Positions 2,953 through 39,083 of a stretch of 64,000 nt of DNA are shown piece after piece; position 1 is the stretch's first letter; the number at the start of each line of letters is the position of its first letter. Both the position numbers and the translations under genes were made by a program. Below the pieces are notes generated by a model. The model was not told the DNA's origin. It saw only the letters and a list, made by a program, of their open reading frames with translations, and did not search any database. The DNA is from Takakia lepidozioides (Eukaryota; Plantae; Bryophyta), in NCBI GenBank assembly GCA_030704615.1, contig CM060734.1, positions 24,924,001-24,988,000 of the forward strand. Reading direction: 5' to 3'.

Positions 2953-3302
2953 TGTCAAGTTAAATAAGCACAGTGTGAAAACAGCTAGAATAAAACTAGT
3001 TATTTATATTTAACACTTGGATTTAGGTCAAGTGTTAAATCAGGTGTCAAGTTTAGTTTGACACCTGGTCCGTCTTATCTTCACGAGAGCGGCAGTCGCG
3101 CGGCTCATCTCTCTCGAGTTGAGCCTGCGCGACCGAGTTCCTGCATTCTTCAGATCGGAGTGTGCTTATGATGGGAGTGTAGGTTGTTGTGGGGTGGAGT
3201 CCCCATAGCTTGGGGTGCCCCTGGCTCGACTATTATCTTAAAGAGTGATGTTGAGGGATTGCATATTTCTTGTGTTGAGAGTGTGTGTCCTTTTTTAGTT
3301 TG
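2953..3302 (+). repeat. Terminal repeat A1 (about 350 bp)
   Basis: Matches 38640-38989 with about 5 substitutions by eye and contains three consecutive hairpins. Confidence 0.92.
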
Positions 3303-5677
3303 TACGCAGCTCAAGCAATGAGCATAGAACGGCTCTAGCTTGAGTTCGTCTCACATCTTCAGTCGCAATGGTGTGGTAGAAGAGAGAGTAATGGTGGTCT
3401 GCCCATATTTCTGTTGGCATTGGCGAGGTGTGCTTCCACTGTAAGGGCGTCGCCCGTCTGCGGAGGATATGTCGATGGCAGCTGGTGGTGTGATGTCAAG
3501 GCCCCATAGAGCCCGCTGCGGTGAATGGGAGCAGCGAATGGGGCAGCAGTGAATGGGAGTCCAGGTAGAGCCAGCGGCTGTGGCGGCAAGGGTCTGGTTG
3601 ATGGTGGCGGCTCTTGGTCGCTCGAGTATCTCTACAGCAGGGGGAACAGCCCGTTCAGGCTGTTGATATGCGGCTCGAACTGGATGACTTCAGCTGTGTG
3701 GTGGAAGCGAGTGGATCGAATGGAAGCTGGTCTGGATTGAGGTCCGCACGACAGGCCTGCACTTTGGGATAGGAGTCATATGCGAAGACAGAAAGCTGAT
3801 AGAATGTGGCGGGCATTTCATCTTCTTTACCGTGGAGGTCTACCTTAAAGAGGGACTTCACTCTTTGGACGCTGAATGTTGCGCTGAAGTGGGAGAGGGC
3901 AGCAGAAACACAGTCCCCCTTCGCACAATGTTTCGACCTCTTTGGCTTTGACCTTTTGACATGAGCAGTTCTCCGCCCTTATTTTTCCTCGCTCTTTCCC
4001 TGTGTTCCCTTCTCCTTTCGTCACCACTACTGCCTCAATCAGAGGTGGCGACCATACTGCCGTTTAAGTGTCCAGGAAACTGATGACATCAAGGAAGCTA
4101 CCAGCTTGTTCCTGAAGACGAAGGGGTCGAATGTCACTGTTCTGGCTGGCACAGGAGCATGTGACCTGCCCATAGGGACTTGGGTGCCTGAAACAAGTGA
4201 AGTGGTTGGAGGATGGAGCATGGCGTCAGGAGATGGAAAGAGAGCAGTGAAGGGGTTTCTACATGATAAGGACCTGCAACTGGTTGCAGCCCAGCATGCG
4301 CTAGCTAGGACCATGACCTGAAGCAGCTGCTAAGTCGCTGGGAGGTCCGTGAAGCTGAACTTGCCCAAATGCGGGAGGTTGTCATGGAGGGAGCTAAGAC
4401 AGTCAGTGTACTGCAGCTGCCTTGGTGGGGAAAGTGAATGCGAGACTGGCAGCTCAACTGGGCATTGGGATAGATTTTGCTTGGTGATGGGATCGTAATT
4501 CAGTAGCAGGCTGATTGGAGTTAAAGAGGTTTGGTCATGCCAGTGTCCGAGCAGCCAGTGAATTTTGGGCCAGATTTTTGAAGGTATGTTGCATGGCAGT
4601 AGGCAGTGTTCCAGAGATTCTGAAACCCCAAGCGAGCAGCATAAGCAGAGCAGTGCACGGGTGAATTGAAGCCAACGCCCTACCTTTAGAATTCTATGTG
4701 CGATCTGCCAGAGAAAGACAGCCAGCTTTGCATCGTGTGTGACAGCTTTGCAGGATGTTTGATTGAGGGCAGCAGTGCATAGCGAGGCCAGTGATTTGAA
4801 TGCCGCTGAAATCTGTCACGGAAATGACCTGATTAGGTCTGGCTGAGCATGTAACCCAAGTGTCGGGCAATGGAGGCAACGGCCCCTGCTGGAGGATTCA
4901 TATCCAAGATGCAGGGATGGTCTGGATGATGCTGGCATAACCTGCATTTCCTCTGGCTGTTCCTACAATCTGGTTTATGTGCCCTGGCACTATAGTGCTG
5001 ATGCCGACCAGATATTCCCAATCTGTGCAATTTCATGGTGATCCCAGGCAGACCACCTCTCCGCATATCCACGGTCAATCTTGTTGTGAAGAAGGAGGGG
5101 CAGGGGCAGGAAGCTAGTAGGTATATGCTGATGATAGACTGAGCTGCTGTGTAGCAGCTATTCCCTGCTCAGTGTCCAGAGGGGATGCTGTGGCCTCCGA
5201 ACTGCGCAAGTACTTGTCTCTGATCTCTGGGTGTCGTCAATGGTGTCTCCTTGCTGATTTTGATCTCTATTAAGAGAGTGTATATCAAGTGCGCAGGGGA
5301 CTCGTCTCTCGAGGGTTCACTGGGAAGAATCGCTTCACGACCTCCATCGTCACCACGGTTTGTGGTAGAAGACGGTTGGGATTCCAAAGCATGGTGAGCT
5401 GTTGAACTCAAATGAAATGGAGGGGAACAGCAGGCACGTGGCCAGGGAACCTAGGATGCCATATAGAACTTAGGGAACCGGGAACCAGTTACCAGATATT
5501 TTGGGTGTAACTTTGAATTTTTAAACTTGAAAACCTTATTAAAAAAAAAAAAAAAAAAAAACCCTTTTTAATCTAATTTGAATGATTTGGAGCCAAATTC
5601 ATCATATCTTTGTCAGATGGACTCTGTTTGACCCAGTTTTTGGGGGGATAGCTGCAGAAAGGGGAAATCTACCTATC

Positions 5678-38292: not shown

Positions 38293-38552
38293 TGGGAGTG
38301 GATACAACCATGGAAGGCTAACAAGAAACGCAAGGCCCAGCTACTAGGAGACCTTGCACACACGAGATCCTGGCTCAAGTTCACAGATTGCAAGACGGCG
38401 ACTAACGATGGGGCTACTCTTGTACCCGGCCTCTTGGTCTATAGAGTTTGAGTACAATAGGGACAGTGATAGAGGACTTAGTACGGTTGTGGCTATTTCA
38501 TCTTATAGCTATCTGGAGGTACAGGGACCTATCCACCAGCTAGGGGGGCGAT

Positions 38553-39083
38553 TGTGGCAGACTACTTTATTGTGCATATATGTGTGGTGTGGTTTGGACA
38601 GCGATGTAGTTGTGTAGCGATAGGTATGTGCACGACAGCTGTCAAGTTAAATAAGCACAGTGTGAAAACAGCTAGAATAAAACTAGTTATTTGTATTTAA
38701 CACTTGGATTTAGGTCAAGTGTTAAATCAGGTGTCAAGTTTAGTTTGACACCTGGTCCGTCTTATCTTCACGAGAGCGGCAGTCGCGCGGCTCATCTCTC
38801 TCGAGTTGAGCCTGCGCGACCGAGCTCCTGCATTCTTCAGATCTGAGTGTGCTTATGATGGGAGTATAGGTTGTTGTGGGGTGGAGTCCCCATAGCTTGG
38901 GGTGCCCCTGGCTCGACTATTATCTTAAAGAGTGATGTTGAGGGATTGCATATTTCTTGTGTTGAGAGTGTGTGTCCTTTTCTAGTTTGGTTATCGATTG
39001 TGGCAGACTACTTTATTGTGCATATATGTGTGGTGTGGTTTGGACAGCGATGTAGTTGTGTAGCGATAGGTATGTGCACGACA
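38553..39083 (+). repeat. 3' terminal block B1(38553-38637)-GC-A2(38640-38989)-B2(38999-39083)
   Basis: B1 and B2 are identical 85-mers, A2 matches A1, and the purine tract AGGGGGGCGA precedes B1. Confidence 0.93.

Follow-up and report, generated by a model that had tools for sequence, protein, structure and literature searches.

A probable permuted long terminal repeat with an internal palindrome in a Ty3/Gypsy clade of the green lineage, and a possible route of integration by way of circles

The 64,000-nucleotide stretch of Takakia lepidozioides DNA analysed here (a bryophyte; assembly GCA_030704615.1, contig CM060734.1, positions 24,924,001 to 24,988,000, forward strand; the window) contains a retroelement with Gypsy-type enzymes whose termini are split direct repeats in the arrangement A…B-GC-A-B on the plus strand. 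The left end, A1 (2953-3302), starts with TGTC and has lost the final 6 nt together with the primer-binding site. At the other end, a G-run purine tract (38542-38549), the predicted plus-strand primer, lies directly 5' of B1 (38550-38637, 88 bp, ending in GACA), which is followed by the spacer GC, by A2 (38640-38995, 356 bp) and by B2 (38996-39083), the right end. Of 350 bases, A1 and A2 have 345 in common; B1 and B2 are identical over 85 of 85, within a perfect match that spans 90 nt. An earlier reading of the sequence alone (the sequence-only reading) had recognized these repeat copies correctly but misplaced their borders: B begins 3 nt earlier than it had proposed, and A2 extends to 38995. 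The first base of B2, G38996, is missing from the Logan contigs of all four runs of the window's own species, which are shorter than needed to phase the A|B joint with the following sequence and whose summed depth is not a copy number. The palindrome GACA-GC-TGTC, at which B1 meets A2, is present as that reading described; the sequence GACAGCTGTC occurs at 38634-38643 and again at 2158-2167, with no third site in the window.

GTTC is found at either end of the A…B-GC-A-B unit (2949-2952 and 39084-39087, plus strand). The flanks are the two halves of one minus-strand gag, and, when aligned separately to an uninterrupted paralog (32231-32344), they overlap by exactly four bases, with GAAC occurring only once in that paralog (32294-32297). 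In addition, 19 contigs of run X1, which may be the window's own sample, link window positions 2919-2948 straight to 39084, as expected of an empty site. GTTC is therefore a genuine 4-bp target-site duplication, as had been proposed. The interrupted gag is part of a host element of the same clade (39084-48834, minus strand), comprising its own A repeat, A5 (48834-48519), a self-primer site (48518-48502), a long leader and gag (40563-39084, continuing at 2952-2531). By contrast, the sequence-only view of 2953-39083 as one element did not hold: the 36-kb span is a nest, and within it lie a second 5' end, A3 (26809-27163, plus strand, 89% identical to A1/A2), a non-LTR fragment, tandem arrays and gene pieces. 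A3 most simply reads as a nested relative, and is likely to be one, whose own 3' end was lost. TGTCAAG starts three 5' ends (2953, 26809 and 48834 on the minus strand), again as first noted. The second, diverged B-GC-A-B block is likewise present at 2139-2529 (plus strand), albeit with a first B reduced to its last 23 nt, next to a conventional 729-bp long terminal repeat (LTR; 1410-2138); GC, A (2164 to ~2444) and B (~2445-2529) follow.

The coding region between the repeats is a broken gag-pol (30801-38283, plus strand), comprising gag, a protease motif (33197), a C5 DNA methyltransferase (33929-35040), reverse transcriptase (YIDD at 35862), RNase H, integrase and a PHD finger (38149-38283). 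Protease and PHD finger were read by motif, the latter being confirmed by Pfam only in relatives, while the methyltransferase, between protease and reverse transcriptase, matches PF00145 (E 7.6e-13) and is assigned to the level of C5 DNA methyltransferases, with no Dnmt3 class implied. Many stops and frameshifts interrupt the frame, and the element is a dead Ty3/Gypsy retrotransposon. Its pol order of protease, reverse transcriptase, RNase H and integrase, with an H2C2 motif and D/D/E motifs at ~37248, 37428 and 37533, is that of Ty3/Gypsy elements, which bears out the Gypsy-type pol with DDE integrase first proposed; for the relative P0008, 71% identical over the integrase, the best PDB match is Ty3-G Gag-Pol (E 4e-101). 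The closest named integrases are from the liverworts Riccia (74%) and Calypogeia (73-77%), and also from Sphagnum. In 26 of 28 alignment rows, 25 of them with intact DDE, the stretch from the second D to the E measures 34 residues (37428-37545 in the window). D-35-E is the usual integrase spacing; the shorter interval may be related to altered end recognition. No tyrosine recombinase was matched by Pfam among the 38 of 45 window open reading frames of at least 150 aa and the 145 of 207 of 80-149 aa that were scanned, or among 54 of 56 scanned frames of complete relatives, although decayed genes could escape such a scan. A chromodomain, the chromovirus trait, is not present at the integrase C-terminus, where the PHD finger stands instead; the chromodomain at 192-560 is part of a neighbouring element. 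Of the features by which Ty3/Gypsy elements are known, the 4-5-bp target duplication and TG…CA termini are found, exact in the window, whereas two full identical LTRs at the ends are not. The element is Ty3/Gypsy by its enzymes, not by its ends.

To place this layout among relatives, we drew on a metagenome scan from which the best 80 of at least 426 relatives were kept. The 3' ends were classified with family A and B queries, counting unique loci only and setting aside truncated loci (L021, L047, L050, L079), duplicates (L018, L024, L035, L060) and loci with no family hit; L003 is the same locus as L004, and in L013 and L014 the beginning of A is missing. Among 29 classifiable unique 3' ends, 13 have the form G-run-B-nn-A|B, as in the window, and 16 run from G-run-B directly into flank, here termed the A…B form. 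B follows A in none of 13 unique 5' ends, and conventional LTR pairs were not found in this tabulation. Of eight complete relatives, L004, L061 and L072 are A…BAB and L006, L010, L019, L044 and L062 are A…B; five show an exact 4-bp target duplication, two match at three of four positions, and L044 has none. L084 also shows the G-run-B-nn-A|B layout. Among 34 more distant loci, GACA-nn-TGTC occurs downstream of the integrase in 11, against 0.3 expected. An integrase tree of 65 rows, from which hits with fewer than 110 aligned residues were dropped and which was rooted on distant Gypsy hits, places liverwort, moss, Klebsormidium and chlorophyte members in one clade (support 100), with palindrome-bearing loci scattered throughout. 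Judged from these sequences, the layout is a clade-wide feature.

Several observations accompany this survey. Many annotated Marchantia polymorpha 'genes' (P0122-P0137 and others) match the methyltransferase region of the element at 60-70%, and these are likely to be copies of the clade. The loci L083-L089 come from assemblies labelled as bacterial or archaeal genomes and yet carry this plant or algal element, probably through binning contamination. Viral contigs gave two weak integrase matches and no motif match. Two loci that read purine tract-B-A-primer site, L016 and L083, were considered as circles and not counted, both being likely collapsed assemblies, L083 with overlapping ends.

The positions of the two primers suggest how the repeats should be parsed. 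A G-run lies directly 5' of B1 in the window and in all 14 loci in which B1 was tabulated. Directly after A, no tRNA primer-binding site is seen, as had been remarked; what that remark missed is a self-complement of 13 nt after A3 and 17 nt after A5. Specifically, nine of 13 unique 5' copies, against none of eight 3' copies, have directly after A a perfect complement of at least 12 nt (12-17 nt) to an internal motif of A; in 40 shuffles of each of three copies, the maxima were 10-12. The site after A3 (27164-27181, plus strand) is perfectly complementary, over 13 nt, to 26963-26975; A1 has lost its own site, but retains the motif (3103-3119, plus strand; 38790-38806 in A2), the predicted 5' end of the transcript. 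The motif is family-specific in sequence while complementarity is kept, including a compensatory change between A3 and A5, and in eight of the nine copies its start lies 24-34 nt downstream of a TATA-like box. Because the predicted plus-strand primer precedes B and the predicted minus-strand primer follows A, standard reverse transcription would make B-GC-A the LTR, and the working LTR is probably this unit, which would give the element both a primer-binding site and a purine tract, the former absent after A1 itself. The palindrome would therefore lie inside an intact LTR, and would not be the end-to-end join for which the sequence-only reading took it. The B|A spacer is 2 nt long in 16 of 16 copies. 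It is restricted to GC, AC, AT and GT, the set that an original GC should give rise to when methylated CAG/CTG is deaminated.

The A|B joint behaves differently from this constant spacer. Ten family-2 copies show five forms of the joint, including losses of 150 nt (L072) and 8 nt (L061), and L007 carries an 18-nt insertion there. A|B is likely to be the true end-to-end join, variable in the manner of an end-joining scar, and the A2/B2 joint of the window (38995/38996) is predicted to be one such scar. Since the joint differs in all three supported sister pairs, it was probably made anew in each cycle.

These features can be assembled into a route in which a circle precedes insertion, a reading that we favour at about even confidence. 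First, RNA would start inside A and its 5' end would fold onto the site just after A; the complement is present in the copies, and priming from it is proposed by analogy with Tf1. Plus-strand synthesis would then begin at the G-run before B, to yield a linear [B-GC-A]…[B-GC-A] complementary DNA (cDNA). Its right tip, the end of A, would be joined to its left tip, the start of B, by host end-joining, which would account for the variable, non-inherited joint. Finally, the DDE integrase would cut the palindrome of the 5' LTR after CA on both strands, leaving two CA-3'OH ends equivalent to processed ends and accounting for the observed TGTC…GACA termini and 4-bp duplication; the termini lie exactly where the sequence-only reading placed such a cut. 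A [BA]…[BA] circle permuted at its 5' palindrome would give A…BA|B, and a one-LTR circle cut at the palindrome would give A…B. Both forms were predicted before the related loci were retrieved, and both were found. Precedent exists in retroviruses, in which integrase is reported to cut the palindromic junction of two-LTR circles (foamy virus and HIV-1; PMC4372172, PMC1180852, PMC1905944; published sources are cited here and below from the parts of their text that were accessible).

Self-priming, plus-strand start, internal cut and de novo joining do not depend on the circle coming first, and we hold these shared elements with considerable confidence. What sets the favoured reading apart is the order alone, in which the circle precedes insertion, and sequence cannot order join and cut. 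Several points weigh against it. A symmetric two-LTR circle should also yield the mirror form A|B-GC-A…B, which is seen in 0 of 13 unique 5' ends (P ~4e-4 if both palindromes were used equally, at the observed 13/29), so that circle-first integration must assume a preference for the 5'-LTR palindrome. The circular intermediate of the sequence-only reading is, to this extent, matched by the A…BAB and A…B forms and not by the mirror form. The A…B copies could have arisen by later B1-B2 recombination or by collapse in short-read assembly. No 12-nt complement is found in four of the 13 5' copies, namely A1, whose site is lost, and L006, L044 and L065, in which the motif is mutated or deleted. One A|B joint is common to three family-1 copies, save for one change that probably reflects deamination. 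In family 2, a single AT unit separates the two most frequent joints, and such a difference could also stem from slippage in copies already inserted. The palindrome is absent from 23 of the 34 distant loci, many of them short contigs. The circle, the transcript ends and the cleavage are themselves predictions. The missing mirror form could reflect a 5'-palindrome preference, cutting of a linear molecule with gap repair after insertion, or collapse by recombination or assembly.

The second of these would dispense with the circle. With the same permuted LTR and internal cut, linear cDNA would be cut at the palindrome and both pieces inserted, and the A2/B2 break would be mended in the chromosome, by end-joining to A…BAB or by annealing of repeats to A…B. 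This is possible, if somewhat improbable in our estimate. It covers the purine tract, self-primer, termini and variable joints equally well, and it can explain both the absent mirror form and the near 1:1 split between 13 BAB and 16 B-only ends: a cut at the 3' palindrome would leave the longer A homology and resolve to A…B. It requires, however, a chromosomal double-strand break at every insertion, and its repair bias is assumed, with some A|B-GC-A…B copies still expected.

A PAT/Ngaro-like route, in which RNA would run from A1 into B2, both ends would be restored with the internal B-A junction as template, and the DDE integrase would cut at the circle junction, is unlikely. The layout is the same as the A1-B1-A2-B2 of PAT, Toc and Ngaro (PMC4157794), A1 is close to A2 and B1 is identical to B2, and the Chlamydomonas library entry Gypsy-18_cRei ends with GC after B2. 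Such a route, however, needs neither a purine tract before B nor a primer site after A, both of which are conserved in position. It also predicts inherited A|B joints, and it does not predict A…B copies. The purine tract, self-primer site and non-inherited joints speak equally against the version without a primer-binding site to which the sequence-only reading had pointed. A local accident, produced either by faulty assembly or by an element with a conventional A-B LTR that inserted in tandem or in nested fashion, might be suspected at a nested locus where a third A and unrelated sequences also occur, but is exceedingly improbable and is refuted by the related loci, as the block recurs in 13 unique loci, in the second window copy and in curated algal entries, always with a 2-nt spacer, and B after A is not seen at the 5' ends.

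The remainder of the window consists largely of other insertions. The filler at 3303-26808 (no single strand) holds a non-LTR-type zf-RVT fragment (4330-4812, minus), unknown open reading frames, tandem arrays and a PPR fragment. An unknown gene is present as two diverged copies in inverted orientation (5652-9500, plus; 24769-26691, minus); the first open reading frame has a DGNHR motif, and among the members of its Atlas look-alikes, for which recognition is low, DUF3723 occurs in 31-47% and ParB_N in 11%. Tandem arrays lie at 10208-11143, 19769-20059, 20471-21952, 42708-43348 and 45995-46997, with one 10-bp array common to the filler and the leader of the host element, and a long imperfect inverted repeat (637 bp, 65% identity) at 11492-13263. 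Host-gene fragments comprise photolyase (28606-29169), PPR (14990-15349 and 63513-63959), F-box (41272-41577), ORC2 (53880-54407) and MCM (62023-62945), those of photolyase and F-box sitting in the leaders of elements of the permuted-LTR clade. A 136-bp match between 5541 and 29427 follows poly(A) runs and was not treated as establishing a shared leader of A1 and A3; tblastx self-comparison of the window was noisy and served for leads only. Positions 1-2138 belong to a Gypsy element of the ordinary chromodomain type (SH3, chromo), of which they form the 3' part; its LTR at 1410-2138 is likewise bounded by TGTC…GACA. This hints, as speculation, that the internal palindrome may descend from a captured two-LTR circle junction.

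The layout has been glimpsed before. For KnitGypsy-Dnmt3 of Klebsormidium nitens, the legend to Fig. 4c of de Mendoza et al. 2018 (PMC5890265) gives a DIRS-like repeat arrangement with Gypsy domains, the DIRS arrangement being drawn in Fig. 1e as A-coding-B-A-B. Like the window element, KnitGypsy-Dnmt3 combines a Gypsy pol with a cytosine methyltransferase; the accessible text says nothing of a target duplication or a palindrome, nor of a primer site, the A…B form or any mechanism. The clade of the window element includes a K. nitens integrase, P0108 (support 100), although it is not necessarily a copy of KnitGypsy-Dnmt3, and a search with the methyltransferase region gave no match named K. 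nitens among the matches listed. In the Chlamydomonas repeat library (PMC9940879 supplement), Gypsy-14a_cRei, Gypsy-18_cRei and the entry preceding Gypsy-4_cInc have, as here, a G-run, B, GACAGCTGTC and A, then B at the 3' end; the first two begin with TGTC, like the window element. In Gypsy-18_cRei, a 15-nt complement, read by eye, links an internal motif of A to the bases where the 5' A ends. These entries are curated consensus sequences, and their layout passes without comment in the main text as available. Gypsy-21_cRei is curated inverted, its internal part starting GC-TGTC, and Gypsy-18_cRei ends in the GC noted above. Gypsy-7a_cRei (PHD, 'LTR subparts') was not counted as a relative, its entry consisting of an LTR listed on its own and an internal portion whose start resembles a tRNA primer-binding site.

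Tf1/Sushi and Tcn1 are self-priming Ty3/Gypsy elements with no tRNA primer-binding site (PMC7175516, PMC6317226), and in Tf1 the RNA 5' end is complementary to the primer-binding site over 11 nt, compared with 12-17 nt in the window clade; there the complement and the TATA spacing are read from contigs, while RNA pairing and primer cleavage are predicted. Tf1 and Tcn1, however, have two full LTRs and integrate from cDNA tips, whereas the window clade has permuted ends, a PHD finger and often a methyltransferase. The split direct repeats are shared with PAT, Toc and Ngaro, from which the window element is set apart by an integrase of the DDE type, a duplication of 4 bp, and the presence of a purine tract and a primer site; the likeness is likely to be convergent. 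Cleavage by a DDE enzyme where two ends abut as a palindrome, as proposed here, is paralleled in foamy virus and HIV-1 (the studies cited above), although the retroviral palindrome consists of joined tips and belongs to a side path, whereas in the window clade the palindrome would be part of the LTR sequence and the joined tips would come to lie within the inserted copy. Among DNA transposons, IS3/IS911 elements form circle junctions at which a DDE enzyme cuts abutted ends. A literature search that did not extend to theses, subscription journals or Repbase notes turned up no description of the palindrome, self-primer, A…B form or mechanism. The claim that the system had not been described thus gives way for the layout, in print since 2018, while the mechanism appears undescribed.

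LTR circles have long been regarded as dead ends, and their use by integrase is still argued for retroviruses (PMC4372172). To judge by its genome copies, the present clade has followed a route in which integration would not proceed from the tips of the cDNA. Because no matching pair of full LTRs is present, LTR-finding programs are likely to miss or misfile such elements; a plant LTR survey, in the part available, makes no mention of PHD fingers or Klebsormidium. As the clade occurs in model organisms, among named Marchantia proteins and Chlamydomonas library entries, the question is testable. If the layout is a guide, elements with either kind of integrase can come to have split direct repeats. 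Overall, it may be, on a judgement poised near the midpoint, that in this Ty3/Gypsy clade of chlorophytes, Klebsormidium, liverworts and mosses the integrase attachment sites have moved from the cDNA tips into the LTR, such that one- and two-LTR circles would serve as normal integration precursors and host end-joining would be needed in every cycle.

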